A stretch of 59,730 bases of DNA, counting the filler, from Stramenopiles sp. TOSAG23-6 (lineage: Eukaryota): NCBI GenBank assembly GCA_900128565.1. It is 12 parts of 12 records of this genome, joined end to end, with 100 filler letters (N's around TTAATTAATTAA, not from the genome) between each part and the next. Parts side by side here need not be neighbours in the genome. Positions count along the whole stretch, not along the records: positions 9,999 to 14,895 come from LT637021.1; 11 more parts are not named here. The stretch is one strand, 5' to 3'. The position numbers and the translations under genes were made by a program. This document shows positions 4,900 through 54,107 of the stretch, piece by piece. How positions within the stretch are numbered: position 1 is the first letter of the stretch; every line of letters starts with the position of its first letter. The notes under the pieces were generated by a model. It saw only the letters and a list, made by a program, of their open reading frames with translations. It did not search any database and was not told the origin of the DNA.

Positions 4900-4999
4900 N
4901 NNNNNNNNNNNNNNNNNNNNNNNNNNNNNNNNNNNNNNNNNNNTTAATTAATTAANNNNNNNNNNNNNNNNNNNNNNNNNNNNNNNNNNNNNNNNNNNN
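4900..4999. other. Artificial contig linker (44N-TTAATTAATTAA-44N), recurring about every 5 kb
   Basis: Identical 100-nt spacer with stops in all six frames at all 11 junctions. Confidence 0.98.
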
Positions 5000-5104: not shown

Positions 5105-5827
5105 GTGGAATGGTTTTGATTACTTTTTACACTTACTGAAAATGTATACTACTTCCTATGAAAAAGTTATATTTATCGGGTCTAGTATGGGAGGTACTGC
5201 AGCATTGTTGTTTGCTCATTTAGCCAATGTACGTTTCTTTAGCCCTAACCCTAATCACAAAAAAAATCACAAAAAAAAAATATTTTTTTTTTAAATTTTT
5301 GATTTTGTTGTATACAATATATTTTTTCGTAGTGAATTTTGTACCTAACAAAAATTTAATTTTTTTTTTAATATTTTCTCAAAATGCATAGAGTAATTTC
5401 ATTTGGTCCCAAATATAACATGAAACACGCACATGGCTCATATTTGCCAAATCGTATTATAACAAAATGTACAAAATTAATTAAAAAAAATGTCTCTTTG
5501 GCGATTGATAATGAAACGCAAGTTAACGTTCATATAGGAGCACAAAATTTAGATGATGTTTTACAGGGTAGAAAATATGTTTTTTTTACTACAATTTTTT
5601 TTTTTTTTTTCATAGTAAATTTTGTACCTAATGATTTTTTTTTTGAAACTAAAAAAAAAAAAAAAAAATATTTTTCACAAAATATGTTATTAAATGATGT
5701 TCCAGATGTACAAATAAAGCACCATGAAACATTTCATCATAATATTCCAATGTTTCTCGAGCGAGAAGATAAATTGATAAATTTAGTGAAACGAGAAGTC
5801 ATTGAACTTGCTATCCAAACCAGTTGA
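5105..5827 (+). CDS. Alpha/beta hydrolase-fold protein, C-terminal exons (5105-5228, 5390-~5574, ~5686-5827)
   Basis: Nucleophile elbow FIGSSMGG, joined AHLAN/RVISFGP, late His (HHNIP). Confidence 0.7.
5229..5389 (+). mobile_element. Family intron GT...AT, 161 nt, flanking AT duplicated
   Basis: AAT|GTACG ... TTTTGTACCTAAC ... AAAATGCAT|AGA; joins two ORFs. Confidence 0.75.
5575..5685 (+). mobile_element. Family intron with uncertain 5' end (ATATG at 5575 or GT at 5568)
   Basis: TTTTGTACCTAAT core and TATTTTTCACA terminus; reads as poly-F/poly-K in the ORF. Confidence 0.6.
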
Positions 5828-6186: not shown

Positions 6187-9100
6187 TCTGTATTTCACCA
6201 ACACTTTCCTCAACATTGTCATTTACACAGGAACATCTGACACACACAAATATAATGGCAAGAGTTGATAAAACAACAACACACAAGAAAATAATTGAAA
6301 CGGCAGATCGAAAACGGAAAAAATCATCGAATAATTTTTTCCTGTCCTCATTTTCTTGTTTTGCTTCTTGTTTTGGTATTGGTGTAGTGTTTGTAACTCT
6401 ATCATTTGTCTGCTCTTTTTCAATTTCACGCTCTCTTTCAATTTCAATTTCGTGCTCAACAAAATGTCTTTCAGGGTCATACTCCCATTCTGGTTTAATG
6501 TCACCACCAAAACTCCGATATGCACCTTCCATTGGAAGCTCGCGTTCTACCCATTCGGGCTCTGGTAAAGCCCGAAAAACACCTTCCTTCGGGTCATAAA
6601 ATTGTCGATTCTCATGAGGTTTCCCTACTTTATCGACTTTGACAAATTTCAATTCAGCATCTCGTTTTTCTTTGGCAGCTTTCAATTCAGCATCTCGTTT
6701 TTCTTTGGCAGCTTTCAATTCAGCATCTTGTTTTTCTTTGGCAGCTTTCAATGCAGCATCTCGTTTTTCTTTGGCAGCTTTCAATTCAGCATCTTGTTTT
6801 TCTTTCGCAGCTTTCAATTCAGCAGCTTTTTCTTCTTTAACTTTCAAATCAGCAGCGGCTTTCACTAAAGCAGCTTGTTTTGCTTTCACAGCTTTCAAAA
6901 TCACTGCAGCAGCGTGTTTGGCAGCTTTTTCATTTTCAGCTTTCAACTCAGCAATATCTTTGCGAGCTTTTTCATTTTTAGCTTTCAACTCAGCAGCATA
7001 TTTAGCGGCTTTCGCTAAAAAGTGTTTGGCAGCTTTTTCATTTTTAGCTTTCAACTCAGCAGCATCTTTGGCAGCTTTTTCTTCTTTGACTTTCAAATCA
7101 GCAGCGTCTTTGGCAGCTTTCACTGCAGCAGCTTTTGCTTCTTTTTCTTCTTTAACTTTCAAATCAGCAGCGGCTTTCACTGCAGCAGCTTGTTTTGCTT
7201 TCGCAGCTTTCACTGCAGCAGCGTGTTTGGCAGCTTTCGCAGCAGCAACTTTTGCTTTCGCAGCTTTCAAAACAGCGGCTTCTTTGGCAGCTTTCACTGC
7301 AGCAGCGTGTTTGGCAGCTTCTTCATTTTGAGCTTTCAACTCAGCAGCATCTTTGGCAGCTTTTTCATTTTTAGCTTTCAACTCAGCAGCGTCTTCAGCG
7401 GCTTTCACTAAAGCAGCTTTTTCTTCTTTAGCTTTTGCGTCTTTAGCTTTCAAATCAGCAGCGTCTTTAGCGGCTTTCTCTAAAGCATTTCTTTCTTCAA
7501 AAGTTCTTAGATTTTCTCTTTTCACATTTACTGATCTACCGCCTCCTTGTAGAACTACTCTGTACCGATCTTTAATTAATATATATCTACCGATTGTACA
7601 ATATGTACCATTTAATGCTGGTTCAGATTGTATACCTGTTAGTTCTACAACTGTGCCTGGTTTTAGTTCATCTTTATGAGATTCGCTTGATTCGGGAAGG
7701 GAAGTTCTTTTACGTCTCTTGCCAGACGAAAGGGAAGGTTTTTCATGTCCATCGCGAGACGGTGTTTGTCCCTTCCTCAAAGGAGGTTCTTTTTGGGAAA
7801 GTGTTCCCTGTATCGCACTAAATACAACGTCTGGTGCATGCTCTAAGTCGTCTGGTGCTTCTCTTAACGCTTCGGCATTTTGGTTAACGATAGTCTTTAC
7901 AAACGCTTTATTTTTACGGAGGGATTCTGATGCATATTTTAAAGCAAAACCAGATTCAGCAGCAAATTGCATGATTACATTAGGATCATTGCGTATCTCA
8001 TATGAGGCAAACTGAAGTGCACCTGCATCTTGTTCAAGCGCAACCATTACAATGTTACGATCAGCACGTTTTGTTTTTGATGCGAATTGAAGAGCTTTCC
8101 CATATTGTTTTACAGCTGCCAAAACAACTTCATCGTCGTTGCGCAACTTTGTACCTGCAATTTCAAATAAAGATCCGTCCACTTTCACAGCTGCCAGTAC
8201 AATGTCCTTAGCACGACAATTCTCTTTTGTTGTAAATTTAAGCGCAGTTGCGTTGTTTTGAACGGCAATTAAGACGATATCATGATCACCACGTAATCGC
8301 TCTGAAGCATATTGAAGTGCCAAGCCATCATTCTTCACAGCTGCTTTTACGTATATTTTGTCATCCCGTAGTCTTTCCGATGCAAATTCAAGCGCTAATC
8401 CATTCTGATTCAAAGCTTTCAATACAACTCCTAATTTATCACGTATTCCGTCTGACGCAAATTGAATCGCTTTCCCATTCTGTTTCACGGCTTCTGAAAC
8501 AATTTTCACGTCTTCACGAAGTGTTTTATCCGCAAATTGAAGCGCGGCACCTCGTGATCTCACTGCTTCCATCACAATCCCACGATCATATAACAATTGA
8601 GGATTTGCATATCTAATTGCTAATCCGTTATTGCGAACGGCAGCTAAGACGACGTCACGGTCTTCACGTAATTCGAATGAAGCAAATTGAAGTGCTTCAC
8701 CATGATTCTTCACAGCTGCTTTTACGAATTTTTTGTTACCCCATAGTCTTTCCGATGCGGATTCAAACGTTAATCCATTCTGATCCAATCTCTTCAATAA
8801 AACTCCAAATTTAGCACGTATCCAGTCTGACGCAAATTGATTCGCTTTCCGATCCTGTCTCACGGCTTCAAGTACAACAACTAAGTCTTCACGAAGTGTT
8901 TTATCCGCAAATTGAAGCGCGGTACCTCGTGATCTCACTGCTTCCATCACAATCCCACGATCATATAACAATTGAGGATTTGCATATCTAATTGCAAATC
9001 CGTTATTGCGAACGGCAGCTAAGACGACATCACGGTCTTTACGTAATTCGAATGAAGCAAATTGAAGTGCTTCACCATCATTCTTCACAGCTTCTAAAAC

Positions 9101-9770: not shown

Positions 9771-9898
9771 ATTTATTGTCGGAAAATATGTAAATGCTTT
9801 TTGTTAGGTACAAAATTAACTACGGAAAAAAATTACATGTAAATCTAAAAAAAAAAAAAAAAAAAAAAATCTAAAAAAAAAAAATTGTGAGATGTAGG
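9771..9898 (-). mobile_element. 3' part of family intron, ends ATAA-AT
   Basis: TTTTGTACCTAAC core, TATTTTCCGACAATAAAT; cut by contig end. Confidence 0.6.
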
Positions 9899-10326
9899 NN
9901 NNNNNNNNNNNNNNNNNNNNNNNNNNNNNNNNNNNNNNNNNNTTAATTAATTAANNNNNNNNNNNNNNNNNNNNNNNNNNNNNNNNNNNNNNNNNNNNTG
10001 TAATATATCCTATCATATTTTATGAATTATTGAATTGTACTTGATAATTCATTGAATACGAAAATAAAAGTTTTAAAGTTTTGAAATCAATTTAGAAAAA
10101 AAATTAAATTTGTACGGTTTTGGTACAGAATTTTATTGTTTCTTTTTTAATGAATACTTTCATCATGAGGATCAACAATACCCTCAACATTATCATGAGT
10201 AGTGATCGATACATTAATAGATTCCGTAACAATTTTTTGTACCTAATTTTCAATTTTTTTTTAAGTACGTAGATTTGCCACGGAATCTATTAATACAATG
10301 ATCATAAATCATGAGCATCTTCATTT

Positions 10327-11562
10327 TCATTGATTTGAGTTCGACAAACACTTTGGATATGTATTTGTAGAATCATTAGAAATGGCAGCTACATAACAAA
10401 AGTATAGGGGTACATTTCGACAAAGTTCAGCATGAGTAAGTGAAGTACAAAGTTTGTTGTTGTACAAATACAAAACTGTAAGGTTTGTTAGTTGACCAAT
10501 TTCAGAAGGAATTTCACCAGAGAGTTTGTTAGTGTACAAGTCCAATGTTTCGAGCTTTCTTAGTTGACCGATTTCTTTAGGAATTGGACCAGATAGTTCG
10601 TTGTTATGCAAGTACAATCGTTCAAGACTTGTTAGTTGGCCAATTTCCTTTGGAATTGGACCAGATAGTTTGTTGTTCCACATGCTCAAAAGTGTAAGGT
10701 TTGTTAGTTGACCAATTTCTTTTGGAATTTCACCAGATAGATTGTTTCCTGACAAATCCAACCATCGGAGATTTGATAGCTGACCAATTTCACTAGGTAT
10801 TGGGCCAGATAGGTAGTTATCATTCAATTCCAAAAATTTGAGCTCCGTTAATCGACCAATTTCTGTTGGAATTGGACCAGATAGTTTGCTGCCAAACAAG
10901 TACAATTCTTCGAGATTTGNTAGTTGACCAATTTCCGTNGGAATTGAACCAGATAGGTTGTTGTCATTCAAGATCAATCGTTCGAGATTTGATAGTTGAC
11001 CAATTTCCGTTGGAATTGAACCAGTTAGTTTGTTTCCTGACAAAACCAATCGTTGGATATTACCATTATCATCACACAAGACACCATACCACTTACAAAC
11101 ATTATCATCCGATAACCAACCAGAGTTATTCTCCCAATGTTTTCCATCAGTTGCCTTGTACAGCTGAATTAAAACATCTTTCTCATTGACAATCGACATT
11201 TCGTTGATCGCAGGTGATTCAGTTCGCGTTGTTGAAGTTAAATCATTTGAAGCACCGATAAACACACAGTAAGTGACAGTAAGAATGACAAGACAGTAAG
11301 TGACAGTAAGAATGACAAGACTGAGGAGGATTATTCGGAGCACAAGCAAACAAGAGAAAAGACCCTTTTTAGGGTTGCTGTTTCGATCGAGAAGTACAAT
11401 GTGGTCGTCTGCACACAATTTCGAAGTAGATTTCACGTCTACAAAAGCGCATCCATTATCACCATCCGCAAGAAGCGGCGTTTTGTAATTAGTCTCTTTC
11501 ATTGTATGTATGTTCGAAACATGCGAGTGCACATGTGCACGTAGGTCGTACCCAATTGGCAA
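10327..11562 (-). CDS. Membrane-anchored leucine-rich-repeat protein (plant-type 24-aa LRR); start uncertain
   Basis: TM segment, LYKATDGKHW...CKWYGVLC cap, repeats LSGxIPxEIGQLxNLxxLxL. Confidence 0.9.
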   Translation of the reverse strand: MPIGYDLRAHVHSHVSNIHTMKETNYKTPLLADGDNGCAFVDVKSTSKLCADDHIVLLDRNSNPKKGLFSCLLVLRIILLSLVILTVTYCLVILTVTYCVFIGASNDLTSTTRTESPAINEMSIVNEKDVLIQLYKATDGKHWENNSGWLSDDNVCKWYGVLCDDNGNIQRLVLSGNKLTGSIPTEIGQLSNLERLILNDNNLSGSIXTEIGQLXNLEELYLFGSKLSGPIPTEIGRLTELKFLELNDNYLSGPIPSEIGQLSNLRWLDLSGNNLSGEIPKEIGQLTNLTLLSMWNNKLSGPIPKEIGQLTSLERLYLHNNELSGPIPKEIGQLRKLETLDLYTNKLSGEIPSEIGQLTNLTVLYLYNNKLCTSLTHAELCRNVPLYFCYVAAISNDSTNTYPKCLSNSNQ

Positions 11563-11719: not shown

Positions 11720-13054
11720 ATGAATGCTCGTACTACTGGAAAGAGTATAGAGAAAAAGAGTAGTGCATCCCTTAGAGAAAAAGATGATCGCCCACCTGTA
11801 CAGAATGCGGAGCCATTGTCGTATAGAAAACTGTCACCCTTTTTCAGGATTCTTAGTGGTATCGTAAACTCAGTCACATCCCCTGGTACAATAAAAGGGA
11901 AAGCACGCTTCATAACTATTCCGTATAGTCACTATGTTGAACGTGCTCGTTGGGCTCTTGACTTATCTCCACTTAGGGACTCTTATACTGAAGATGGACA
12001 TCCTCCTGGTTTGTCAATATTTGCAGTTCACTCCGTCACTGGAGGGAAATTATCATCTTGCCCAGCTCTACAATTTGCTGATGGACAAGTGATTCACGAT
12101 TCTACTAAAATTCTACATGGTTTGGCAGAGCGTTACCCTAGTAATGAAGATGGTCTTGGTTGGATGTATCCGCCCTCTTTGAAAGAGAGCATAACTCTCT
12201 ATGAAGCAGAACTCGCTGAAAAATTGGGGTCCTTAGTAAGACAAGTTGCCTATACTTTTATTGTTTGTGAGAAGAAAATATGGTCAAAACACNTCGAAGG
12301 TCTATCTAAACATTCAAGTGGGCCTGAAAAATGGTTATTTAGACAAACGTCCATCAATAACCGCATTCGGAGGGGTATCAAGTCTAGTTTGCGATGTCAC
12401 GCAAATCGACTACAAGACGGTATCACTGGAATCGAAAAAATTTTTGAAGACGCAAGTAAACGTCTGAAACAAAACCAAAATGATATAGGTGAGGGATATC
12501 TCTTTGGTTCAACATTTACTGCTGCTGATCTTACATTTTCTGCACTTGCATATCCTTTAGTATTTCCCCCTGAGCACATGCAATTAGACCCATTTACTCT
12601 TTCTGAATCTCCTCAAGGATTTCAGGATTTGGTGAAGAAAATGCGAAAGACTTTAGCAGGGCAGCATGTACTAAAGATGTATAGAAAGCATCGCATATTG
12701 AATTGTAGTATGAAGTCCGTTCCAAAACATAATGTAAATAATTTAAAAAACATTTCAGGTGATAAAACAAAAAAAACAAAAAAAACAAAAAGTTCTAAAG
12801 GTGAAATTTCTGAGTTGTTATATCCTGATGGTTCAAAATTTAGAAAAGTTGTTTTCAAAGGTGGCGGGAAAAGAACTCGTATTCCTTGGGCATTGGTATG
12901 TGTTTTTTTGCATCTTNTGTTGTGTAAATTCACTGGTTCGCAGTTTATGTCTGCATGTGCAACTTGGGAAACCTGGGCGAGTATTGCCGCATTACTAACT
13001 TTTACATTTTGGCTTTGGCAAACAGGAAGGATTAACTTTATAAAATTCACTTAA
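11720..13054 (+). CDS. Glutathione S-transferase-like protein with C-terminal hydrophobic segments
   Basis: SHYVERARWALD, DSTKIL, FTAADLTFSALAYPL. Confidence 0.85.
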   Translation: MNARTTGKSIEKKSSASLREKDDRPPVQNAEPLSYRKLSPFFRILSGIVNSVTSPGTIKGKARFITIPYSHYVERARWALDLSPLRDSYTEDGHPPGLSIFAVHSVTGGKLSSCPALQFADGQVIHDSTKILHGLAERYPSNEDGLGWMYPPSLKESITLYEAELAEKLGSLVRQVAYTFIVCEKKIWSKHXEGLSKHSSGPEKWLFRQTSINNRIRRGIKSSLRCHANRLQDGITGIEKIFEDASKRLKQNQNDIGEGYLFGSTFTAADLTFSALAYPLVFPPEHMQLDPFTLSESPQGFQDLVKKMRKTLAGQHVLKMYRKHRILNCSMKSVPKHNVNNLKNISGDKTKKTKKTKSSKGEISELLYPDGSKFRKVVFKGGGKRTRIPWALVCVFLHLXLCKFTGSQFMSACATWETWASIAALLTFTFWLWQTGRINFIKFT

Positions 13055-13255
13055 ATTTAATTTAAAATTTTTATTCTTTTCTTTCCTTCTTTGAATGACA
13101 ACAATATGCTAATGCTTGATGATGTTCGACTCAATCCTAGTTAGGATAGTTGGTATTGTGCACGGATGGGGCATCAAAATAGGATTTTAAAAGAAATAGT
13201 CACGAAATCCACGAAATCAAGCATTTATTGTCTATTTTATTGCTTCAGTTTAATG

Positions 13256-14830
13256 TCAAGTAGTCAGTTTTCTGTATTTCGTTTTTCGCCCTGATCGAAG
13301 CATTTTTATAACATTAAATTCATTACTATATCCATGCATAAGTATTGTGAAAAAATATTTTAAAGTAAAAAAAATGGTTAGGTATAAAATTTTCGATAAA
13401 AAAATAATTCGAAATTCAAATTTTGAAAACAAACAACATCACGTAAATCACCAAATACATCATAATTAAAATGTGTCACTCTTTCTGAAAATATCTCATT
13501 TGTTTCAAAAGTTTCACGTAATTTTTCACAATAATAATAAATAGATAATTCTGAGTTAATTCTACCAAATTGGTTGTTACTTCTAGCTATTATCTTCCCT
13601 GTCACATCCATGTATTTTGGAAAAATATTTCAAAAAAAATCGTTAGGTACGAAATTTCGTACGAAAAAAAAATCGACTTTGAAAAAAAATAAAACATCCA
13701 TATATGTAACTCCTGGAATCCTTGAAAAGACTGATAGAAATTCATTAATATTTAGAGGTAAAATCTGGACGTTTACATATTGAATTTTCATTTCTAAAGC
13801 AGCAACCGTTCTGTGATGACCATCGGCAATGTAGAAATCCCTAGTAATTATAATACGATCAAAATTATTATGAGGATTTGTAAAAAGATTAAACTCTGTA
13901 CTGCTTGCATTAGGGTTAGGGTCATCATTATGAGAAAAATGGTCTAAAGTATTTGAATAGTCCTGCTTTTTAAAATCTGATATTAATCTTTCAACACCAG
14001 TGCTTGAAACATCCTTCTGTATATATTTTAATAGCCCAACCCTAATTTTTGATAACTTAATGTCTCCATATTCTTTTTCGAATTTTTGTCTCAANGTAAA
14101 GTTCGTCAAGATATCACTAGGTTGCGGCATAAATCTTCTTGATAATTTTGGAGTTTGCGGCATAAATCTTCTTGATAATTTTGGAGTTTGGAGTTTTGAT
14201 GTTTGATCTGTGAAGTTTAACAAATTACTCAGAAAATTTCTTGGGTCATTTTCATCGTATTCTTCAGCTTCATCTTCGTTTGCATCAAATTGATTAGAGT
14301 TCAGTTTAGGAAATGTGAAAAGAAATGGCATGTAATGTGAAAAACATTTAAAAAAAAAATCGTTAGGTACGAAATTTGGTACAAAAACTTTTTTGAAATT
14401 CAATTTTGAAAGCATACATATACACTCCTATAAAACTACCTACAACAGAACTAATTGTTAAAACTGTAGATAAAAATAAAACTCCACGTTTTCGTTGATT
14501 TTCTCTTTTTGTCACTTGATTTTGATTTAGATATTGAAATATATTGTGAAAAAATATTTCAAAAATTCGAAATTCGTCAGGTACAAAATTTCATTGTCAA
14601 AAAACAAATAAATTTCAAATTCATAATGAAAACGTACATATTTGATTTCTAATACTCATAACTGTTTTCAAAAATGCATTCCTTACGTTTAAATTATTCT
14701 GTACATCAGTGCTTTTATTATTCTGAAACAATGTTAATTGCACAGTTTTCATATTCTTTCGGAATATTTCGTTATCCCATTCTACTGTAAAAGGAATCTC
14801 CTGCAATCCTATAAAGTTCCTTGTACCACC
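13256..14830 (-). CDS. Multi-exon protein with TM segment and ParB/sulfiredoxin-like motif (exons ~14830-14638, 14538-14418, 14329-13700, 13609-13435, 13339-13256; 5' truncated)
   Basis: One continuous frame after removing four family introns; IIITRDFYIADGHHRTVAA. Confidence 0.65.
13340..13434 (-). mobile_element. Family intron GT...TT, 95 nt, TT duplicated
   Basis: GTT|GTTTG ... TACCTAAC ... CACAATACTT|ATG. Confidence 0.7.
13610..13699 (-). mobile_element. Family intron, 90 nt, GG...AT in family register
   Basis: AT|GGATG ... TTCGTACGAAATTTCGTACCTAAC ... AAATACAT|G; ATGGATGT direct repeat makes the borders slide. Confidence 0.7.
14330..14417 (-). mobile_element. Family intron GT...AT, 88 nt, AT duplicated
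   Basis: TAT AT|GTATG ... CACATTACAT|G CCA gives GVYMPFLF. Confidence 0.75.
14539..14637 (-). mobile_element. Family intron GT...AT, 99 nt, branch variant CCTGAC
   Basis: ATA T|GTACG ... CACAATATAT|TT CAA gives RNQIFQYL. Confidence 0.75.
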
Positions 14831-14895
14831 AAATATTATGTGAAAAAATATTTCAAAAAAAAATCTAAAAAAATTGTTAGGTACGAAATTTCGTA
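14831..14895 (-). mobile_element. 3' part of family intron (end TT or AT, ambiguous)
   Basis: TACGAAATTTCGTACCTAAC ... TATTTTTTCACATAATATTT; cut by contig end. Confidence 0.6.
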
Positions 14896-14995
14896 NNNNN
14901 NNNNNNNNNNNNNNNNNNNNNNNNNNNNNNNNNNNNNNNTTAATTAATTAANNNNNNNNNNNNNNNNNNNNNNNNNNNNNNNNNNNNNNNNNNNN

Positions 14996-16453: not shown

Positions 16454-19400
16454 ATGAAAGACGCCGAAAGAGTAAAACGTCAGCTGCAACGTCGTGCGAT
16501 GGTTGATTCAAATAGAACACGTATAAACGAAGTCCAATTGTTTCTAGATGAGGCCAAAAGAAAAGACGAGATGCATACTACAGAGATTGCTGATCTCAAG
16601 AGAAAACATCGCGTGGAAGTTGCATTTCTCCAACAAACGATTAATAAGCTTAAAGATATAATTAAAACTCACAATATAAGTTCAAATCTAAAAAATTCTT
16701 CTGATGAACCAATACTAAACTTTGCTGCAGCAATGAATCGGCACTTACTTGTCGATTCACAACAGATGAATGATAATATTGCAATGAAATTGACGGCGGC
16801 ACAAGCTAAACATGCAGACTTTCTAGTTTTTCATGAAAAATCGCATAGAGAAAAAGATAACGCACATCGATTTGAGCTTGCAAAGTGTGACATTAGACAC
16901 AAAGCAGAAATTCAACAGTTAAAAGAAGACATAAGTTTAGATCATCAGAGAGCTTTAGAAGATATGGCTGAACATCATAATTTAGAAATACAGAAAGTTG
17001 AAAACGCGCTAGCTCTGGCAAATCTTACTGGGTCACATCATGAAAAGGTGGCTAAACTCGAAAAAGAGCAAAATTTAAGTAAGAAACTTGCTATAGAAAA
17101 AATGGTTGAAAAGCACAGCAATGAAATTTCAGTTGCTGAACAAGATATGCATATTTTAAAAGAAAAATATGAAAATAAAAGAATAGAATGTGATAATCAT
17201 AGATTACGATATTCAGCATTAATGGACGAAAAAGGAGTGCATGTACGTTTTCATCATGAATTTCGAATTTATTTTCTTTTTCATACGACATTTTGTACCT
17301 AACAAATTTCGAATTTGACATATTTTTTCAAAATACATGCAATCGCACTAAAGGAAATAAGTGAAAAATATTCGAACGCTTTAGATAATCTTGTCAAGAC
17401 TCACGAAAAGGAATTGGCAGACACAATAGAAGAATTGAAAAATCAGCACGATCGAAAGATGAAACTGGCAAATATTAAAATGAATGAAATGAATGTTAGT
17501 ATGAATATACTTAGAACGGATATTGTTTCAACAAGTGATACACATGAGGTAATAGTGAAAGAAATGACCGATAAATACGCGAATGAATTAAAGATGCTGG
17601 CGGAAAGTCATCAAGGGGATAAAGAAGAAGCACTCCAGGAACTTCAAAAACGACATAATGATGAAATAAAAACAGCCGAAAACAAATTAAATGATATGAA
17701 AACAAAATACTCTGATTTTGTTGCGCATCATGAAATTTCCCAAACCAAAAAAAAAGCTATACATGAAGCTGCATTAAATGAACTAAGTTTGCAACACAAA
17801 TCTGAAATGAAACGACTCATAAAAGCAGAAGATGGAAATCGAAAGAATGCACTAGAAGACTTAGCAAGTGAACATAATTCAGAGATACGTCAAATGGAAA
17901 GAAAACTTTTAGAAAAGACAAAGGCTCACGATGCGAAAGAACGAGCAAATGAAATAGCAGCAGCTTCGATTTTATCTGATCATAAATATAAAATTTTAGA
18001 GTTGGAAGAAAAACATCAAAATGAATTAAATTACCATAAAAAATTAAGTAATGATAAAAATGAAGAGTTACTTTTGCTGAGGAAGAAACATAAAATGGCT
18101 TCAGATGCACATGAAGAATCCCTAAACGAATTATCTAATAAGTACAAAACCGAATTAAATGCTCTGACAGAAAGTCACCATGGTGATAAATTAGATGCTT
18201 TAGAAGAACTACGAAATCGCCATGCTGAGGAACTCCGACTATCAGAAAATGAATTAAGTAAATTTAAGACAGAATATGCTAATTTTGTTTCACACCTTGA
18301 ATTGTCACACAAGGAAAAGGATGATATTCATAACACTGCTCTAGAAAATATCGCTGCCAAACATGAAACAGAAATGAAGCGCTGTTTAGAAGAATTCGAT
18401 GGCAATAGAAAAGTTGCAATGCAAAATTTGGCACAAAAACACCAATCAGAATTATTTAGTTTACAGACAAAAATTTCAGAGCACGAAGAAGAAAAAAAAG
18501 CCACTGTAAAGGCGCATGAACTTGCTTTATCAAGACTTGCAAATGATTATGAGAGTGAGCTTGCTGAATTACAAAGAGAGCACTCTAATAGTAAAACAGA
18601 AGCTCTTGAAATACTTGCCAAAAAACATAGCGCGGAACTTGCGATATCTGAGAAAAACATTTCCCATTGGAAACAAAGCTATGATGAAATGACGGAAAAA
18701 TATAAAAGAGATCTCAATGAACTTGGGAATGACCATGAAAAAACACTAAAAGATTTACATACCCAACATACAGAGAAAATCAAAGTACATCATGATAAAA
18801 TGAAGAATTTGGAATTGAGACATGCTAATATAATGGAAAAAAAAATACAAGAAAAAAGTATAATACATGAAAAGGCGATAGCGAAAATGGCAAACGAACA
18901 TAAATTAGAGATGCAACGATACTTGAAAGAAGCTGACAACAATAAAAATATTGCACTTGATAATTTAGCTCGACATCACAAAGACGAAATCGAGCGATGG
19001 GAAAAAGAGCTTCTTGAAGATTCTGGTACACCAATAAAATACTGGCAAAACAAATACTATAATATGGAGCAAAAACACAAAGAGCAAACTAATGAAAATT
19101 TAAAATTAAATGGAACACTGCAACACCAGAAAAAGAAGTTGATAGTTAAACAAAGGAGTTTAGAGGAGCAACAAGAAGCATTAATGAAATTAGAATCTTC
19201 ATACAAAATTTATGAACGCGACTTCAATAAATCTCTTGAAGATAGAGATGCCGCACTTGAGCATGCTGAAAAGGAACATTTAAATACCAAAACGGAGCAT
19301 GCGAAAACATTGAAACAACTTAAATTAGATCATGAAGACAATATTGCAAAGCTAAAAGAAGAGCACACATACTTAAAAGAAAAGGCATTGAATCTGATGT

Positions 19401-19989: not shown

Positions 19990-21018
19990 TTCAATAAAGC
20001 AGAAGCACGAGGGGATCTCAAACCTGGTAGCGTAGTTGTTGCAGCGTCATCAGGAAATACTGGAGCTGCAACTGCTATGTTGGCTGCAATGCGTGGATAC
20101 CACGCAATCATAACGACATCACCGAAGTGCAGCAAAGAAAAGATGGCTGCGATAAAAGCATACGGTGCCGAACTTTTGATAAGTAATCCAGGTTTAACGG
20201 CGTCTGATTCAGGGCATTACATGAATCATGCTAATACAATTGTTAATACTGAAAATAATAAAATACGCGAAAATAAAACGAAAAACAAAACGTTTTGGTT
20301 CAACGTGAGTCAGTATGACAATCCAAATAATCCTGAGGCACATGCGACTACTTTGGGTCCTGAAATATGGAAACAAACATGTGCAGCAAACATTCCAGTG
20401 ACACATTTTGTTGCTGCAGGGAGTACTGGGGGGACAATTTCTGGCACAAGTTCTTTTTTGAAGCAAAAGGATCCTTCCATCTTGACTACATTAGCTGACC
20501 CTGTGGGATCTATTTTTACAGAGCACTTTATGAAGCTTAAAAAACAAAAATATTCTAGTGATTCAAGTAAGAATGATAGCAACACTGACGTATGTTATTA
20601 TCAATTCATTCCAATTTCGAATTTTTGTTTTTTTTACCAAATTTTGTACCTAACAAAAAAATAAAATTTTACGTATTGTTTTACTATACATAATGATGAG
20701 AAGGTTAAACGCCAGAAGTTTTTAGTTGAAGGTGTTGGAAAAACTGTTATACCTGGTTGTATAAATTTTGATGTTATAGATGATGTACTACCAATCGATG
20801 ATTCTGAGGCTTTTAAAATGTGTCACAAATTATCATCTGAGATGGGAATTTTGGTGGGTGGCTCATCCGGTTTAAATGTAGCAGCTGCATTGCGTATTGC
20901 AAATAGACAAGAGGGACCTGCAACAATTGTCACAATCTTATGCGATTCTGGTGTGAAATATTTATCCAAGATTTATGATGACACGTGGCTTCGTGAGAAC
21001 AATCTTCCTTCTTTATAG
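19990..21018 (+). CDS. Cysteine synthase / cystathionine beta-synthase family PLP enzyme (exons <19990-20589, 20692-21018)
   Basis: SSGNTG, QYDNPNN, GSTGGT, EGVG, GGSSG, TILCDSGVKYLSK. Confidence 0.9.
20590..20691 (+). mobile_element. Family intron GT...AT, 102 nt
   Basis: GAC|GTATG ... TTTTGTACCTAAC ... CTATACAT|AAT; internal stop; restores the frame to EGVG. Confidence 0.7.
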
Positions 21019-22404: not shown

Positions 22405-24586
22405 TCAAAGATCAATATTCTTCAAAGCAGCAACTTCTGCAGCTCTTTTTTTAGCCCGCTTGAGAGCACTCAACTTCTTCTTCTTTTTCTTTTTCCGTTT
22501 TGGTTGTCCGTTTGAAATGTTTTTTTTCAACAAATCCCAATTTGATTTCGGAATTCCGGATTTTTTTCTATTACTGCTATCCGTTTTATTTTTTTTCATT
22601 GTCGCAGACTTCTTGATTGGTGTACCACATGCAACACCCATAATATTATTCTCTATTCTTACTATACCATCTTGAAGTGTTGCCGGAGGTTCTACAGGAG
22701 GTGGTGAAGTTCTTTCAGGTAAGGGCCAACCAAATAATGGATATGCTAAAGCTTCTAGTTGCGACATTCGAACCCCTTTTTGTTTTTGAAATACATGTAG
22801 TAATGCAGATCTTGCTCGAGAATTCACTTTTAGCTCATCTGCAGTTGGGCGCGACACATCTTCCATTACATATCCCCATGTATTGTGAAAAACATGTCAA
22901 ATTTGAAATCTATTAGGTACAGAATTTAGTACGAAAAAAAACCATTAAAATGAATGATGAAAACGTACATGCTTTAGGTATCTTTCTGGACTGCATTATT
23001 TCTTTTGCTCCATTTGCTAATAAAAGAGTTTCACCTTGTAATTTTGGTACAAAATGTTTTTCAGGTGCTTTTAATTCACCAGTGTTGCTACTCACAGAAT
23101 CATCATTTTTAAAAGTGATACATTCTGGTAATAATGATTCATCATTATTTTTGAGAGCTTTCTGAGCTGATTGATACCAACTTAATAAAGGATTTTCCTG
23201 TCTTGCATTTTCTAACCAACGAAAGTAATCAACAACAATGTTACATTCAGAATGCTTCCATGTAATAATACCAACTTTCCCTCCTTCTCGCATTACTTTC
23301 AAAGCTGAAACCAAACCACGTTTTAGTTCATCAAACTCCCGATTAATATGAATTCGAAGAGCCTGGAAAGTCATTTTTGCGGAATGCATCGCTTGGTATT
23401 CTTTGCCTTTTGCTGCCACAACCAAAGCAGCAAATTCACGAGTACGTTTTGGAAGACCTCCTGGCCATAGGCCTTCACGTGCCATAAGGATAGCATCTGC
23501 AATACGTCTAGAGGCTTGAATATTTTCACCACCGTAATCCACAATGATTTGAATCAATTTTTCACGAGTGCAGGTTTGAAGCCAATCCCAAGCAGATAAG
23601 CCATGATCTTGATCGAAACGTAAATCTAGAGGACCATCCATCTCTGGTCGAAATCCTCTGCCACCATGTACTGTGAAAAAATATTTCTAAAAAATTCGTT
23701 AGGCATATAACTACTATAAAACTAAATAAATTTGAAATTAATGATGACAATGTACATCCAACTGAGGTGATGATATTCCGATATCAAGTAGAACTCCTGC
23801 AGGCTGAACACCAAGTGTGCCAAGTTCCTCAGCCATATCACCGAACCAACGTTGATGAATCGTAAAACGAGAATCTTCTTCCATAAGTTTTTTACCTACA
23901 GCAATGGCTTCATCATCAACGTCAAAAGCATGTAATCGACCTTTAGGTGAAAGCTTCTCCAAAATTGCTCGGCTATGTCCGCCTCTACCAAATGTACCAT
24001 CAACGTATATACCATCCGGATTATGAATTAGTCTTTTCAGAACTTCTGCTAGTAGGGCAGGTGTATGGGTACCTTCAGCCTGCATTGTACCTGTTGTAGT
24101 TGCACGTGTCACTGATATATTGCGATTTCCAAAGCGAGATAAATCTTTTGCTAGTGCCTTGCGCATACCTTCAGCAGTCTCGAATGTAACAAATCCACGA
24201 ATGACGTTTCCTGTTGTATTATTATACATTAAACGGACTTCTCCTGCAATTGGACCACACTTACTGAAGAACTCATATACTTCACCTTGGGTACACTTTG
24301 GAGGTAAGTACTTGATGTATATTTCTAAACCTGCATGAGTTTTTTCGGCGACAGATAATGGTACACTTTGAGCTGCACCACCACGAGTGACTTCACGAGT
24401 TGTCCAGTGACTTTTACTCTGTCTACTTGAAAAACTACCAGAAACTCCACCTCTACCACGACCACGTCCTCGACCTCTACCTCGTCCAGAACTTCGGCCT
24501 GATTTGCCACGACCCCATTTACTTTTCGATGCTCCAATCCATGCTTCAGATGCCTTACGCTTTACCCCTGCCACCGATGGCGACAT
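22405..24586 (-). CDS. rsmH: RsmH/METTL15-family rRNA m4C methyltransferase with N-terminal RG-rich tract and RRM (exons 24586-23756, 23665-22969, 22877-22405)
   Basis: HTPALL, DGTFGRGGHS, DIGISSPQLD/GGRGF, DGPLDLRF, TFQALRIHINRE, NSRARSA; RRM RGFVTF. Confidence 0.9.
22878..22968 (-). mobile_element. Family intron GT...AT, 91 nt, AT duplicated
   Basis: GCA T|GTACG ... CACAATACAT|GG GGA gives PKAWGYVM. Confidence 0.75.
23666..23755 (-). mobile_element. Family intron GT...AT, 90 nt, AT duplicated
   Basis: GAT|GTACA ... CCTAAC ... CACAGTACAT|GGT restores SSPQLDGGRGF. Confidence 0.8.
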
Positions 24587-24813
24587 ATTATATTCTCTAT
24601 AGAATTATATTTTCTATATAATAATAACGAAACTTGACTTGATGCTATTGTATACTACTACGATGATCGATGCGCTGACTCGGTGTTACCGGGTATCATG
24701 CATGTCATTTCGAAGGCCACGCGCTGTTCTTGTCATCAATTGGCCATTCGTTCTTTCTTTTACTTCTTTGGGTACCGTCAAAAAATTCTCTTTTTCCAAT
24801 GCATTCATATCCG

Positions 24814-27713: not shown

Positions 27714-29874
27714 TCATACACCTTGTAAATTGTTTTGCAACTGATTTAAACCAGGTACACTAATTGACGCATTCATAAACCTCGGAGGTCGTCCTTCAAC
27801 CAAGACTTGTACTATGATTGGGTAAACACGAGGTTGTAATGCTTCACTCTTTGTTTGAGTTATCGTAACAATATTATTGACTGGATGTTTTTGTGATGTT
27901 TCATTTATTGTTTGAGTTATCTGAACAACACCATTGACTGGATCTTTTTGAGCTGCTTTTTTATTATATTGCACTTGTTGATGATTTTGTTTGTAGTCAT
28001 TGTTGTTCTGTTTTTGTTTTAGTTGCTGCGGTTGATCATGTTGCCTTTGTTGTTGTTCCAGTTGTTGTAGTTGTTGCAGTTGTTGTTGCAGCTGTTTTTG
28101 TTGTTGTTGCAGTTGTTGTTCTTGTCGTTTTACTTTACGCGCTAAACAATATTGTTTATTTTGTTCTGTTCGTTTCTGTCTTAACTTCAAATCTGTTGTA
28201 CTTGATATTGAAGTAGAGGCATCTAAGGATTCATCCGTCGTTCCCACGGGATCTAAAAGGATGAGAAAATCAAAGCCGACTGGTTCTTTTTTTGTTTTTC
28301 GTCGAATTTTAACATTTATCGAATCATTATAATTTGAAAAGCGAAGAGGACATCCAAGTATTGTGGAAAAACATTTCAAATTAGAAATTCATTAGGTACA
28401 AAATTTTCTTAGTAAAAAAATAAATCTGAAATTTAATTGGAAAATTTTGGTAGAAAATTCATAAAAAGAAAAAATCACAAACTTAGTATCTTCAGATTTC
28501 GTGTAGAATACGTACAAGCTCCTTTGCCATTTGTTCTTGAACAACTCGAGAAATTCTTTTCGTACATGTTCGTGCTTTATACTTCATACGTAAAGCAAAG
28601 AATTTTACTGCAATGTTCCAAAGAGTATCATCAGATGTTAGTTTGCATGTGTTGTGAAAAAGTCAAATTTTGATATTCATTAGGTACGAAATTTCGTAGG
28701 AAAAAAAAATAAATTTGAAATTCATTATGAAAATATACATTCCGGCCATAAATTTAAGAAGACTTCGGGCGGTTTACCAATTTCATCATCTTCATCACTT
28801 GAAAATAATTTTACATTATTGGCAGTGCCAAGTATTGTGAAAAAATATTTCAACAAAAATCTAAAAAAAAATGTTAGGTACGAAATTTCGTATGAAAAAA
28901 AAATTAAATTAGAAATTCATATAAAACGTACAACGCCATGACTTGTTACTGTATCAGTATCAGCAACTAGAAGATGTTGACTTGATAAAATAAAGTTTCT
29001 TCGGAGCTCTTTAGGGTTAGGGTTTTCATTACTTGTAAATATATCGCGTTTTGCAGCTTTATCACTTGTTTTATTACTTGTTTTATTACTTGTAAATCTT
29101 GGAAGAATAACTAATATTTGCTGACTTATCCACTGTTTAAATTGTTCTAATGAATTTTTACTTAATTTCAACTTTGCTTCTAATAAAATGCGTACTTTTC
29201 TTGGCTACATTATATAGAAATATGTCACACAAAATAAGTAGTACGTATTAGGTATGGAATTTTCATCGTTTATAAAAATATCTAATTGATGAAACAAAAA
29301 AAAAACTTTTAGGTACAAAATTTTCTATGAAAAACAAAATTACATTTTTTTTTGTTAGGTACAAAATTAACTACAAAAAAAAAAAAAAACCTACAGTCAT
29401 TTTGTTCATATCTGCATTTCTAAGAATATTTGATATTTCATGAACAATTTGTTGAGCTGTGAAACCAAACGTAGAAAAATCAGGTCTATTTGTTGTGTCA
29501 ATTTCCATGCTAGGGTTAGGGTTTTCATCGATTTTTTGTTCATCACTATTTTCATTTGTTGTGTCAATTTCCATGCTAGGGTTAGGGTTTTCATCGATTT
29601 TTACATCATCACTTTCATTCGTTTTATCAACCTTTTTTGTAGGGTTAGGGAATTTTACATCATCATTTTCATTCGTTGTATCAATCTTTTTTGTAGGGGA
29701 CAAGATCGTGTTTTTTTTTGTACCAAATTCATTTGAAAAAATTATTTTACGATTGTTTTTGATCATGTGACCTTTCTTTTCTATTTCTAGTGTTTCATTT
29801 TGTTTTTGAGGTATTTCAACAACATTATTGATTAATTGTTTTTCTAGTGTTTCAGTTGTTTTTTGAGGTATCTC
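27714..29874 (-). CDS. Multi-exon protein with DEK-C-like domain and poly-Q tail (exons to 29395, 29204-28932, 28829-28739, 28646-28516, 28355-27714; 5' truncated)
   Basis: ISNILRNADMNKMT/PRKVRILLEAKL; one continuous frame after removing four introns. Confidence 0.65.
28356..28515 (-). mobile_element. Family intron GT...TT, 160 nt, TT duplicated
   Basis: CTT|GTACG ... TTTTGTACCTAAT ... CACAATACTT|GGA. Confidence 0.7.
28647..28738 (-). mobile_element. Family intron GT...AT, 92 nt, AT duplicated
   Basis: GAA T|GTATA ... CACAACACAT|GC AAA. Confidence 0.7.
28830..28931 (-). mobile_element. Family intron GT...TT, 102 nt, TT duplicated
   Basis: GTT|GTACG ... TTCGTACCTAAC ... CACAATACTT|GGC. Confidence 0.75.
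29205..29394 (-). mobile_element. GT-AG intron (190 nt) carrying three copies of the family core motif
   Basis: ACT|GTAGG ... 3x TACCTAA ... ATGTAG|CCA restores KMTPRKVR. Confidence 0.65.
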
Positions 29875-29974: not shown

Positions 29975-30103
29975 TTTTTCTATGAAAATTTTGTATTTTC
30001 ATTAGGTACAAAATTTCGTACGAAAAAAAAAATTATTTTTTTTTTCTATGAAAATTTTGTATTTTCATTNGGNACAAAANTTNCGTACGAAAAAAAAACG
30101 TAC
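29975..30103 (-). mobile_element. 5' part of family intron with duplicated core
   Basis: TT|GTACG, then two CGTACGAAATTTTGTACCTAAT units; cut by contig start. Confidence 0.7.
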
Positions 30104-31607
30104 AATCCAACGAGGGTCGAGTTTTTCTTTATGTAATCGAATCATTGACGTATGATCATATGCTGTATTTCTCATATAATTATTTGATTCCAAATATTTA
30201 AACATTTTTTTTAATCCATCTGAAGATTTTGCCATTTCTACTATATTGTGAAAAATATTTTTTTTTTTTTTGAAAATTTTTGAAAATGTTTTATTTTTTT
30301 ATGTTAGGTACAAAATTTCGTACGAAAAAAAAAACAATTTGTAAAAAAAAAAAAAATGTACATGCACGAGTTAAAATTTGTGTTCGAGTGATTCGCATTT
30401 CGTGTCGTAATCGAACACTTGATCGACGACGGACATTTTGTCTAGGGTTAGGGTTTTTTGTAGGGTTAGGGTTTTGTGTCACATTTTGTATATTATTCAT
30501 ATTTGTATTGTTTTTGTTATTTACAATATTATTTTCAATAGTATTGTTATTTTTGTCGATTTCATTTTGTTTAGATGAAAACTCAAACAAATATTTTTGT
30601 TTTGGTATTGAGGACGTAAATGTTGGATTAGGGTTAGGGTTTTGTGTGAATGTTGAATACTCAACATCTTTAATGTTATCATCATCGTGATCATATATTT
30701 TGAAAAAATATTTCAAAAAAAAAAAAAAAAAAATTTTAGGTACAAAATTTCGTACGAAAACCAAAAAAAAAAAAAAAAAAAATGTTAGGTACAAAATTTC
30801 GTACGAAAACCAAAAAAAAAAAATTCTAAAAAAAAACATTAAAATAAAACGTACTCGTGCTAATCCAAAATCGCATATTTTTAGAGTACAATCTTCATTC
30901 AAAAGAATATTTGCTGGTTTTAAATCACGATGTATGCAACGTCTAGAATGAATGTATGATACTCCACAAAGTAATTGATAACAAAAGCTTTGTACGTGTG
31001 GTAGTGTGAGAAATTGAGGTGATAGAATTAGTTTGTACAAATCCGTATCCAAAAATTCAAAGACAATATACAAATCTTTAAACGTTTCTCTTTTGGGTGG
31101 AAGGATTATATCAACTAATTTACATACATGTTTGCTTCTCATTCGTCGGAGAATAAAAATTTCTCTATAGACACGTAACGCATCAAGTTGGTCTTGAACA
31201 ATATCTGGCATTCTTTTTATGGCTACACGAGCTCCCGTTTTTCGATCTACTGCTTCTCCTACCTCACCATAGGATCCCCGACCTAAGAGTTTAACAATAT
31301 TGTACCGACGTCCAACGATCCAGTGTGAGAACTCACTGACTGGTTGAAAAGGAATTGTATAAGAAGAACTCCCAGCAGAGCTTGGAGGGGAGTTTTCTAC
31401 ATGAGTCTTTTTTTGTTTTTTGTTGAAAACTTGTCTTGGTGATACAGAGTTTGCACTATCAGGACCGGACACATCCGTTAAAAGTGGCGTTTGCTTCTTA
31501 GATGACACCTTACGACGTTGCTGGGGTTGTATCGCATCATCTTCAGTCCAAGCTACGTTTTTACTGCGTTTCCTTCGTCTTGCTTTTACAACGGATGGTG
31601 CTGACAT
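30104..31607 (-). CDS. MAP kinase (CMGC), N-terminal part (exons 31607-30855, 30692-30362, 30240-30104; truncated)
   Basis: GRGSYGEV, VAIK, REIFILR, HRDLKPANILLNEDCTLKICDFGLAR. Confidence 0.9.
30241..30361 (-). mobile_element. Family intron GT...AG, 121 nt (AG in the family register)
   Basis: GCA T|GTACA ... CACAATATAG|TA GAA gives TRALEM. Confidence 0.75.
30693..30854 (-). mobile_element. Family intron GT...AT, 162 nt, two core copies, in frame
   Basis: CGA|GTACG ... AAAATATAT|GAT; would otherwise read as poly-Phe right after DFGLAR. Confidence 0.75.
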
Positions 31608-32104: not shown

Positions 32105-33054
32105 ATGTGTGGATATCGACATTTCCCCCTTTTACTTTGCTATGTTATTATACCTGGAATATATTGTATTAGTACACATTCAGTAAATGGTGTGTTGGAG
32201 GCATTTGATGGACAAAAAGTGACTCGCAAAAACTCGTTTGGTACACCAATGGTAAACGCAGGAGACACGAATAGTTCTTCAGATATATTGTCATCATGTG
32301 AAGAATCTCTGCCATGTCATACATGTATACAACGAAAAGGTTGTGGGATGTGTACGATACGTATACTAGTTGATGAAAATGTAAGGTTTATGACCAACGA
32401 AAAGTTTATACGCCATTCATTCTGTAGGAAACTTGAAACGGAAGAGGAAAAAAGGAATGAAAACAATTCGTTCAATTGCTTTTCATGGAACAATAATCAA
32501 TGTTATTGTATGAATGACTGTTCAGGACATGGAAAATGTATCAGTAGTAATACGTATATGAATCATGCTGAATGCAAGTGTGTTCAAGGTTTTAGTGGGA
32601 TTGATTGTAGGTATGTTTTTTTTTCAATTTGGATTTTTTTTTTTTTTTCAAAAAATTTCGTACCTAACAAATTGTACAAAAAAAATATGTTTCACCATGT
32701 ACTCTGAATTCTTTGAATTCTTTGGATTCTTTGAATTCTTTGAATTCTTTTGAAAGACATTCACATCAAAAATATAGTATTAAAAAATACAACTTCATAG
32801 AAAATATACCAGAAAGAAGAAGTAGTACACATTCAAGGAAAGTGTCTCTTCTTTTATCATTTGCGTTTATATGCTCCTTACTATTGGTTGGATCTGTCGT
32901 ATATGTCCAAGTTACTAATGGATCATGTGCCAAAGGCTCAAAAAGTTCAAAAAGTTCAAAAAGTTCGAAACAACAAAAGTTTGAGTCGAATGAGTATGTC
33001 AAATGTACAAGTCTAAGATCTCCAAATATGAATGATCCCACACATCAAATATAA
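32105..33054 (+). CDS. Single-pass membrane protein with PSI-like and EGF-like domains (exons 32105-32610, 32703-33054)
   Basis: Signal peptide, CHTCIQRKGCGMC, CMNDCSGHGKC...CKCVQGFSGIDC, TM helix in exon 2. Confidence 0.75.
32611..32702 (+). mobile_element. Family intron GT...AC, 92 nt
   Basis: AG|GTATG ... TTCGTACCTAAC ... TTTCACCATGTAC|T CTG restores CSLNSLNS. Confidence 0.65.
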
Positions 33055-39849: not shown

Positions 39850-39949
39850 NNNNNNNNNNNNNNNNNNNNNNNNNNNNNNNNNNNNNNNNNNNNTTAATTA
39901 ATTAANNNNNNNNNNNNNNNNNNNNNNNNNNNNNNNNNNNNNNNNNNNN

Positions 39950-47575: not shown

Positions 47576-48135
47576 TGTAGTGCAATGTACTATACGATTA
47601 TACTAATTTATTCAACCCTTATATCAATGGTATGTGCAATATTTGTTTATACCAGAAAGTACACGTAGATAATCAGAATATTCCTTGTTCTGGTATCCAG
47701 CACAATAACTGTTAGTAGTACAGTCAAGAAAGACACACGGAAGACAAAGCTTCGCTGGCTTCATTATACGATGAGTAGAGGTTAAGCCAAGCAGGTTTGT
47801 GATTTTTTTTGACTAATCAAATGATCCTTGAATGGATGGCCATTGGTCTTCTTCGAGAATCTCTTTTGTGTTTGTGTCAAAATAAACAAGAGACATTTTT
47901 CACCACTAACTCGTAAGTAATTTCTCTTTAAGACTTAGATGCAATACCATTCACGTAGATACATTGTAAAGGATACAATACTCTTTGTATTTGAATTGGT
48001 TTGATTCTTTGCGTGTCTTTTTGTTTGTATCTGTGTAATATCTTATTCTTTTAACTTCAACATTATATGAAACACTCACTGTTCCTCATTTACACCTCTG
48101 TATACCACACTTTATAGAACGAAAAAAACTTTATA

Positions 48136-48922: not shown

Positions 48923-49140
48923 TAATTGTTTGTGATGGTGTGAGGAATGTATTTCCTGATATTCTACGTAATGGTGAGGTATCCGCAATGTATGTGTGAA
49001 AAAGTTTTTAACCTTGCTATTGAACAGTTCATTGAGGCACAAATCAAAGACAAATTCATTTTTTTTATTCTAAAAGATGTAAATGTTGATATATTTTCCT
49101 ATATACTTTTTTATTTTTTTATATTAATAACTATGAAACG

Positions 49141-49796: not shown

Positions 49797-49896
49797 NNNN
49801 NNNNNNNNNNNNNNNNNNNNNNNNNNNNNNNNNNNNNNNNTTAATTAATTAANNNNNNNNNNNNNNNNNNNNNNNNNNNNNNNNNNNNNNNNNNNN

Positions 49897-53889: not shown

Positions 53890-54107
53890 TAATTGTTTGT
53901 GATGGTGTGAGGAATGTATTTCCTGATATTCTACGTAATGGTGAGGTATCCGCAATGTATGTGTGAAAAAGTTTTTAACCTTGCTATTGAACAGTTCATT
54001 GAGGCACAAATCAAAGACAAATTCATTTTTTTTATTCTAAAAGATGTAAATGTTGATATATTTTCCTATATACTTTTTTATTTTTTTATATTAATAACTA
54101 TGAAACG

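Follow-up and report, generated by a model that had tools for sequence, protein, structure and literature searches.

How can a short sequence interrupt gene after gene and still leave reading frames that join, and what marks its 3′ end for removal when that end is not AG? These questions are raised by a 59,730-base stretch of DNA from Stramenopiles sp. TOSAG23-6 (NCBI GenBank assembly GCA_900128565.1), called here, in its whole length, the window, in which a repeated A+T-rich element occupies intron positions. Four of its copies lie at 13340-14637, where a preliminary description had noted a 2-bp repeat at the element borders and 4-bp inverted termini and had taken the two as the signature of an introner or of a miniature inverted-repeat transposable element (MITE). 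No source of mass intron gain is better supported than introners, most known families of which use canonical GT and AG borders. The analysis reported here favours, with a probability of roughly 0.6, the view that the element is an introner family, i.e. a set of transposon-derived spliceosomal introns, in which the target-site duplication (AT, TT and once AG) serves as the 3′ splice site.

The window consists of 12 contigs of 4,867-4,899 bp each, in falling order of size, joined by linkers of the form N44-TTAATTAATTAA-N44 (at 4900-4999, 9899-9998, 14896-14995 and onward) across which adjacency has no meaning. Contigs 10-12 (44930-59730) are three identical copies, and a 95% copy of these, interrupted by many single Ns, makes up contig 1; the unique sequence amounts to approximately 45 kb. 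After orientation of each copy to the strand of the open reading frame (ORF) that it interrupts, a recount gave 18 unique complete copies, rather than the 20 of the preliminary description. Three duplicates of copy e46697 on contigs 1, 11 and 12 (1766-1859, 51662-51755 and 56629-56722) were left out of this set, as were a degenerate copy at approximately 5583-5679, a copy at 9773-9870 whose 5′ end was not definable and those copies that are cut by contig ends.

A repeated element at intron positions

The element is 85-160 nt long with 78% A+T. Its 18 complete copies are spread over at least 10 genes and are accompanied in the window by about ten partial ones; the density is about one copy per 1.8-2 kb of unique, gene-dense sequence. 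A 16-nt core motif gave 46 matches against 0.94 expected, and an nhmmer profile built from the four copies at 13340-14637 gave 37, with E-values down to 4e-17. The alignment of the 18 copies showed the core to be most alike, at a pairwise identity of 77%, followed by the 3′ part at 71% and the 5′ half at 59%. These values are far above the 34% expected by chance and show common descent rather than a chance resemblance between short signals. Five contig termini are located within the element, as happens when an assembler meets a high-copy repeat. An independent run of seawater DNA covered the unique flanks at a depth of approximately 4, and the bin holding the most consensus-like copy reached 94,920, a summed depth and not a copy number.

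On the gene strand, the short form of the layout is an exon ending in WT, then GTAYGT, CGTACGAAATTTYGTACCTAAC, a run of T, TTTTTCACARTAC, a second WT and an exon starting with G; the aligned copies give, between the same two exon ends and borders, GTAYGTTTTCATYATGAATTTC, TTTTTCGTACGAAATTTYGTACCTAAC, a T-rich tract and GAAATATTTTTTCACARTAC. The GTAYGT at the start is the standard U1-type 5′ site consensus, and 17 copies begin with GT while none begins with AG. The best-conserved stretch, GTACCTAAC, includes the branch-site consensus CTAAC. One of CTAAC, CTAAT or CTGAC is present in every copy, and in 14 it lies 33-44 nt upstream of the 3′ end. Mid-element there is a 16-nt palindrome, GTACGAAATTTCGTAC. 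No significant RNA structure was found: the z-scores of six folds ran from -1.68 to +0.48 and RNAalifold returned 0 consensus pairs. Relative to the ORF that it interrupts, each of the 18 complete copies is in sense orientation.

The reading frame was used to define how much is removed. For each of the 18 copies the longest open frame on either side was taken, together with the length whose removal joins the two. In 17 copies this was the element plus 2 nt (P ~1e-7 at a chance rate of 1/3), the sole exception being e32611 (32611-32702, plus strand), in which the extra length modulo 3 is 0, no repeat is present and the 3′ end is degenerate and uncertain. Removal of all four copies at 13340-14637 together left the minus-strand frame continuous over most of 13000-14837; in this joint removal 97 nt, not 95, were taken out at e13342, which alters only the short, weakly framed tail after the last intron. 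A search for further copies found none in prokaryote genome contigs and two loci in public metagenome contigs, one of them usable (contig L002). This nineteenth copy also obeyed the +2 rule, its removal extending the ORF from 181 to 225 aa. Metagenome contig L001 was rejected as a further copy, being probably chimeric, with half an element joined to unrelated DNA and adaptor-like sequence at 1020-1076; so was viral contig L003, where the match is due to chance and lies in the zinc-finger ORF of a giant virus.

Two junctions could be compared with those of relatives. Both lie in a minus-strand gene at 22405-24604 for an RsmH-like rRNA methyltransferase with an N-terminal RRM domain, a fusion that also occurs in the relatives P0130 and P0132. 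At e23668 (23666-23755), the alignment with E. coli RsmH (PDB 3tka) runs to D144 in exon 1 and continues from R148 in exon 2, and the spliced product SSPQLD/GGRGF is identical to P0139 (SSPQLDGGRGF). At e22880 (22878-22968), which splits a TGG (Trp) codon, the spliced product IPKA/WGYVMEDVSR matches P0156 (LPRGWGYSMEDVSR) and P0124 (LPKNWGYG). P0124 and P0156 (69% and 73% identity, from contigs of approximately 10 kb) are uninterrupted at this position, the one of the 18 that was so compared. The intron is thus absent from these relatives, which suggests that it was gained recently.

Seawater DNA contigs span the exon-element junctions 13342, 13612, 14637 and 14839 at exon depth, and this argues against any removal at the level of DNA. 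The window also holds an element-free GT-AG intron (48233-48473, plus strand; 241 nt, GTAAGT..TATAG), located in the V-ATPase subunit c gene at 48138-48922 from the join ALVFS/NLGAAYG seen in P0002-P0005, so that two kinds of intron appear to be present in the organism. In a listing of matches, not a phylogeny, the best organism-named relatives of this V-ATPase subunit c are nearly all stramenopiles (oomycetes, brown algae, raphidophytes and pelagophytes), and the host of the element family, an uncultured marine protist, is probably a member of that group. Its genetic code is the standard one, with ORFs of up to 1062 aa open in the window. DNA of the window was also found in seawater metagenomes and, in small shares, in polyA metatranscriptomes.

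The two-base repeat and the 3′ border

The last two bases of the intron are the same as the last two bases of the upstream exon in 13 of the 18 copies, AT in nine cases and TT in four. All 13 had been named in the preliminary description (TT at 13340, 28356, 28830 and 36650; AT at 5229, 13610, 14330, 14539, 17243, 22878, 23666, 28647 and 43003) and all were borne out, with the strand to be corrected at 13340-14637, where the four copies lie in a minus-strand gene. When exon dinucleotides 2, 4, 6, 8 and 10 nt further upstream were taken instead, only 3, 1, 1, 1 and 2 of the 18 copies matched. As exon end and intron end might each favour AT independently, a permutation keeping both marginals was used; this gave a mean of 7.6 matches and reached 13 or more at P = 0.001. 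The AT/TT table contains no crosses (9, 0, 0, 4; Fisher p = 0.0014), and the earlier claim that the two ends co-vary is upheld by both statistics. Since the TT pairs are direct and not inverted repeats, they are not accounted for by base pairing between the ends of the RNA. The window thus contains a repeat family of intron position and intron length, in one orientation and with a co-varying direct repeat at its borders.

The ends were said to read GTAY and RTAC, and do so in 15 and 11 of the 18 copies, respectively. G follows as the first base of the next exon in 11 copies, again as described, exon position -3 shows no base preference, and the sense strand shows TT but never AA; these features are consistent with a larger set of insertions on which splicing acted as a selective filter. 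Inverted complementarity between the two ends is limited to positions 1-3, sometimes 4, as against the terminal inverted repeats (TIRs) of approximately 10 bp or more by which a MITE is recognised, and the MITE label is correspondingly weak. What survives of the preliminary reading is therefore the repeat family, its intron position and its co-varying 2-bp repeat, but the inverted termini amount to 3-4 bp and not to a convincing TIR.

The mechanism proposed is as follows. A non-autonomous mobile element of approximately 90 nt would insert into many genes and would persist only where it can be spliced. It would bring with it a strong 5′ splice site (GTAYGT), the branch site GTACCTAAC, a T-rich tract and the 3′ motif TTTTTCACARTAC, and on insertion would duplicate a 2-bp target, AT or TT, usually with G next to it. 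The spliceosome would then cut at GT and again 2 nt beyond RTAC, with the duplicated target rather than AG as the 3′ splice site. The excised unit would comprise the element and one of the two duplicate dinucleotides, and the mRNA would be restored without a scar. We infer here that the spliceosome carries out the removal, that a transposase produced the repeat as a target-site duplication and that the motif of the element and its position determine where the 3′ cut falls. The scarless excision put forward earlier can be deduced for the 13 matching copies, not for all 18. A Helitron-like insertion between A and T or T and T (bioRxiv 10.1101/2022.12.15.520654) was considered and rejected, as it would need the last base of the element to co-vary with a host base.

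Several observations weigh against this mechanism. The repeat is absent from five of the 18 copies, and in three of these (e30695, e46697 and e32611) the mismatch requires at least two changes. Copy e46697 (46695-46788, minus strand) is in addition abutted by a 3-nt repeat (ATG), yet its frame requires the removal of only 2 nt. The inverted GTA(Y), only 3-4 bp long, is also the 5′ splice-site consensus. No transposase-like ORF was found among 20 window ORFs scanned against Pfam, and no empty sites or precise deletions among the 15 joints listed, of 146. Three polyA metatranscriptome runs gave RNA contigs on the neighbouring LRR and GST-like genes only and none on the intron-bearing gene at 13320-14837. 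RNA-library contigs do carry whole or partial copies of the element with other flanks, so that unspliced copies are present there, whether as pre-mRNA, retained introns or carried-over DNA. Lastly, the sample is one of 18 copies out of 45 kb.

The two remaining mismatches are smaller. In e20590 (20590-20691, plus strand) the exon ends in AC and the intron in AT, and one synonymous change would be enough, since GAC and GAT both encode Asp; in e30243 (30241-30361, minus strand) AT and AG differ by one change in the last base of the intron. The frame rule is kept despite the mismatch in e20590, e30243, e30695 and e46697, and only e32611 fails on both counts.

The inferred 3′ ends of the 18 copies are AT in 12, TT in four, AG in one and uncertain in one, in keeping with the earlier claim that the duplication need not be AG. 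The stretch from the branch site to the 3′ end contains few AGs. Two AGs nevertheless follow the branch site in e23668, 21 and 5 nt from the inferred end, and one lies 5 nt before the end of e46697. The first downstream AG was rejected as the true 3′ site in both copies, as the frame would break; in e23668 its use would also destroy an RGF motif that the orthologue comparison shows to be conserved. A further reading, less likely than not, is that the element contains a portable, AG-independent determinant of its 3′ splice site, which would place the cut 2 nt past the end of TTTTTCACARTAC, whichever 2 nt these are (AT, TT or AG), skipping AGs 5 nt upstream; any 2-bp duplication made on insertion would then leave with the element. 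If this is true, a transposon encodes its own scarless excision at the RNA level in a protist that keeps ordinary GT-AG introns, and a second mode of 3′ site recognition exists beside the canonical one.

Competing explanations and related systems

The main rival supposes no duplication at all: the terminal AT or TT would be owned by the element, whose insertion was guided by microhomology, or both ends would be held at WT by splicing (compare AG/GT..AG/G). Obedience to the +2 rule in four non-matching copies fits this, as the 2 nt there act as part of the intron whether repeated or not. The same can be said of the asymmetric target, with G following in 11 of 18 copies and exon position -3 without preference, and of the restriction to TT in the sense strand, which points to selection by splicing. 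Independent constraints on the two ends, however, predict no co-variation, in contrast to the AT/TT table above, and an element carrying both copies of the dinucleotide would leave a 2-nt insertion in the mRNA. The single-change mismatches of e20590 and e30243 are, moreover, the decay that a duplication is expected to undergo. An origin without duplication is thus judged unlikely, if better placed than the explanations that follow.

Spread through RNA, in which excised introns would reverse-splice into transcripts at WT/G and then be copied back into the genome, would make the mobile unit equal to the spliced unit. The uniform sense orientation inside ORFs, which are taken as transcribed, would follow automatically, and the short TIR (at most 3-4 bp) and the lack of a transposase among the 20 ORFs scanned would be accounted for. 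Yet sense-only survival is also expected for a selected DNA element in a gene-dense genome, and reverse splicing offers no reason why intron end and exon end should co-vary. The tandem core of e30695 and the partial copies at 29247-29400 and 29975-30100 resemble DNA-level events. We regard this route as improbable.

Much less credible is removal by other machinery, either from DNA, as with the internal eliminated sequences (IESs) of ciliates and a 2-bp repeat, or from RNA without the spliceosome, as in euglenids. Short AT-rich interrupters of ORFs, of which one copy of a 2-bp repeat is retained, would be in character, as would a 3′ end other than AG, and the ends of the AT class can pair (AUGUAC..GUACAU). 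Against this, conservation is highest in the motifs of the 5′ splice site and the branch site, and the orientation is strict; the folds described above gave no significant RNA structure (z from -1.7 to +0.5); exon-element junctions are held at exon depth in seawater DNA contigs; and the standard code keeps ORFs of up to 1062 aa open. The TA-bounded IES of ciliates was rejected as an identity on similar grounds, the borders here being AT or TT, the junctions being at exon depth in seawater DNA and the code being standard.

That these are merely ordinary old introns, alike only through strong splice signals, can hardly be sustained: the best-conserved stretches do resemble splice signals, but the likeness reaches stretches without a signal role (in six copies, 47-92% identity in the 5′ half), the depth of the element in metagenomic DNA is enormous and the assembly breaks at it, the non-element intron of V-ATPase c has other signals and another length, and the e22880 position is absent from two relatives. 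U12-type introns have the 5′ sequence RTATCCTT and a branch site, TCCTTRAC, 10-20 nt from the 3′ end. This identity was also rejected, as none of the 18 copies has ATCC at the 5′ end and the branch-like motif is 33-44 nt from the end in 14.

Among the known systems close to this one are the introners of Micromonas pusilla and Aureococcus anophagefferens, for which it is established, as the preliminary description had stated of introners, that a target-site duplication can supply a splice site (PMC11282704). There the element provides one splice site, the duplication the other and the spliceosome is a normal one, a division of roles that the introner reading of the present family would share. 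Both are short multi-copy elements at intron positions with a short flanking repeat. The duplications in Micromonas and Aureococcus are, however, of at least 3 nt, the borders canonical GT/GC-AG and the TIRs of constant length (PMC11282704, PMC7789003), whereas the repeat here is 2 nt, the 3′ end AT or TT in 16 of 18 copies and the inverted termini 3-4 bp.

In the tunicate Fritillaria borealis, the 3′ splice site is a non-AG one made from an exon triplet (TAC/YAY) that has been duplicated, and AG/AC and AG/AT introns are preceded by an exon TAC. These introns are MITE-derived, commonly end in AT or AC, are handled by a U2-type spliceosome and occupy lineage-specific positions (PMC11282704, PMC13326754). 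The last three intron bases are YAY in 11 of 18 copies here, but YAY precedes the 5′ site in only six. The 5′ ends in Fritillaria are mostly AG, in contrast to the 17 GT starts, the GTAYGT consensus and the strong CTAAC branch site of the present family, and the repeat there is 3 nt, as opposed to 2 nt in a protist with a stramenopile-like V-ATPase c.

Amoebophrya, a marine protist as well, also has repeated non-canonical introns with direct repeats overlapping the borders and no internal transposase. Its direct repeats vary from 3 to 5 nt, its inverted repeats of 8-20 nt form hairpins and U1 is apparently missing (PMC7789003); the family described here is single, has a fixed 2-nt repeat and a U1-like 5′ site and forms no hairpin. 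The nonconventional introns of euglenids and hemistasiid diplonemids share short direct repeats at the junctions and borders other than GT-AG, and a MITE origin is suspected for them also. They are characterised by extensive pairing of the ends and by the lack of U1 complementarity and of a pyrimidine tract (PMC12621601, PMC11282704), unlike the present elements with their spliceosomal signals, GTAYGT 5′ site and no standout RNA structure.

A literature search gave no description of this element family; the per-family duplication lengths in Dataset S2 of PMC12130899 may include a 2-bp case. With its canonical GT 5′ site and strong branch site, its 2-nt repeat and a probable stramenopile host with normal introns, the family differs from those known and looks like a new variant. 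If confirmed, it would provide a natural system for the choice of non-AG 3′ sites, a question so far approachable mainly in Fritillaria. Tolerance of non-AG ends would then have arisen more than once, and gene predictors bound to GT-AG would mis-annotate most genes of this lineage.

The individual copies and their surroundings

The gene at 13320-14837 (minus strand) is interrupted four times. Copy e14541 (14539-14637) is 99 nt long, GTACGT..CACAATAT+AT, and e14332 (14330-14417) is 88 nt long, GTATGC..CACATTAC+AT; the frame is restored in both, with 86 and 57 codons open in the former and 57 and 232 in the latter. Removal of the 90-nt e13612 (13610-13699) leaves 242 codons open upstream and 76 downstream. 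Its 5′ border was placed at the degenerate GGATGT by alignment with the consensus; a 6-nt repeat, ATGGAT, flanks the first GT, and the use of that GT instead would give a 6-nt repeat and the same product. All three are of the AT class. The last intron of the gene, e13342 (13340-13434), comprises the element at 13342-13434, with 5′ GTTTGT, and TT at 13340-13341, matching TT in the exon; its frame is weak downstream, where 27 codons are open and the next-best frame has 10. Another copy is represented by its 3′ part at 14837-14895 (minus strand; nhmmer E = 3.5e-7), where the contig end falls inside the repeat. For the largest exon of the gene only one weak relative was found (E = 9.7e-4) among 1.84 billion representatives. 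Within an exon of the same gene, 14127-14190 (minus strand) is a 32-nt direct duplication, by which the peptide TPKLSRRFMPQ appears twice.

On the plus strand, e5229 (5229-5389) lies in an alpha/beta-hydrolase-like gene, with AT at both borders and the frame restored on removal. Telomere-like CCCTAA repeats occur inside this intron (5243-5257) and at the start of contig 2 (5000-5020). The degenerate copy at 5583-5679 (plus strand, hydrolase-like gene) starts with ATGTTT, the GT being missing, and ends with ..AAAATAT+GT; its length keeps the frame, and its borders may have shifted. Copies e17243 (17243-17338, plus strand; AT) and e36650 (36650-36748, plus strand; TT) are flanked by long open frames, of 296 and 850 codons in a long coiled-coil gene for the first and of 562 and 1034 codons for the second. 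Copy e43003 (43003-43089, plus strand; AT) has a degenerate 3′ end (ATCA) and is flanked by a 5-nt repeat, ATGAT; the frame test is uninformative here, as its 87 nt are also open when read through.

On the minus strand, the frame is restored at e28649 (28647-28738; AT) and e28832 (28830-28931; TT), while at e28358 (28356-28478; TT), which begins with GTGATT, the upstream frame is weak (35 codons against 32). Copy e30243, in a kinase gene, has an exon ending in AT and an intron ending in AG and so constitutes a canonical GT-AG version of the element. In e30695 (30693-30854) the core is duplicated, with two GTACCTAA motifs 49 nt apart; the exon ends in GA and the intron in AT, and the frame is restored. 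The Pkinase match ends precisely at the 5′ end of this element. The tandem runs of partial cores at 29247-29400 and 29975-30100 lie near two contig ends. Together with the core duplication in e30695, they point to DNA-level rearrangement within copies. For e46697 the exon ends in TG and the intron in AT, and 271 and 588 codons are open only after removal of 94 nt; no homologue of its gene was found in the search for relatives.

A search of the window for RNA families and tRNAs found none. Large ORFs contain long tandem repeats that stay in frame, at 38042-39820 (eight units of 165 nt), 39881-41146 (15 units of 69 nt), 10379-11098 (a 72-nt LRR-like unit) and 6604-6867 (a 33-nt unit).

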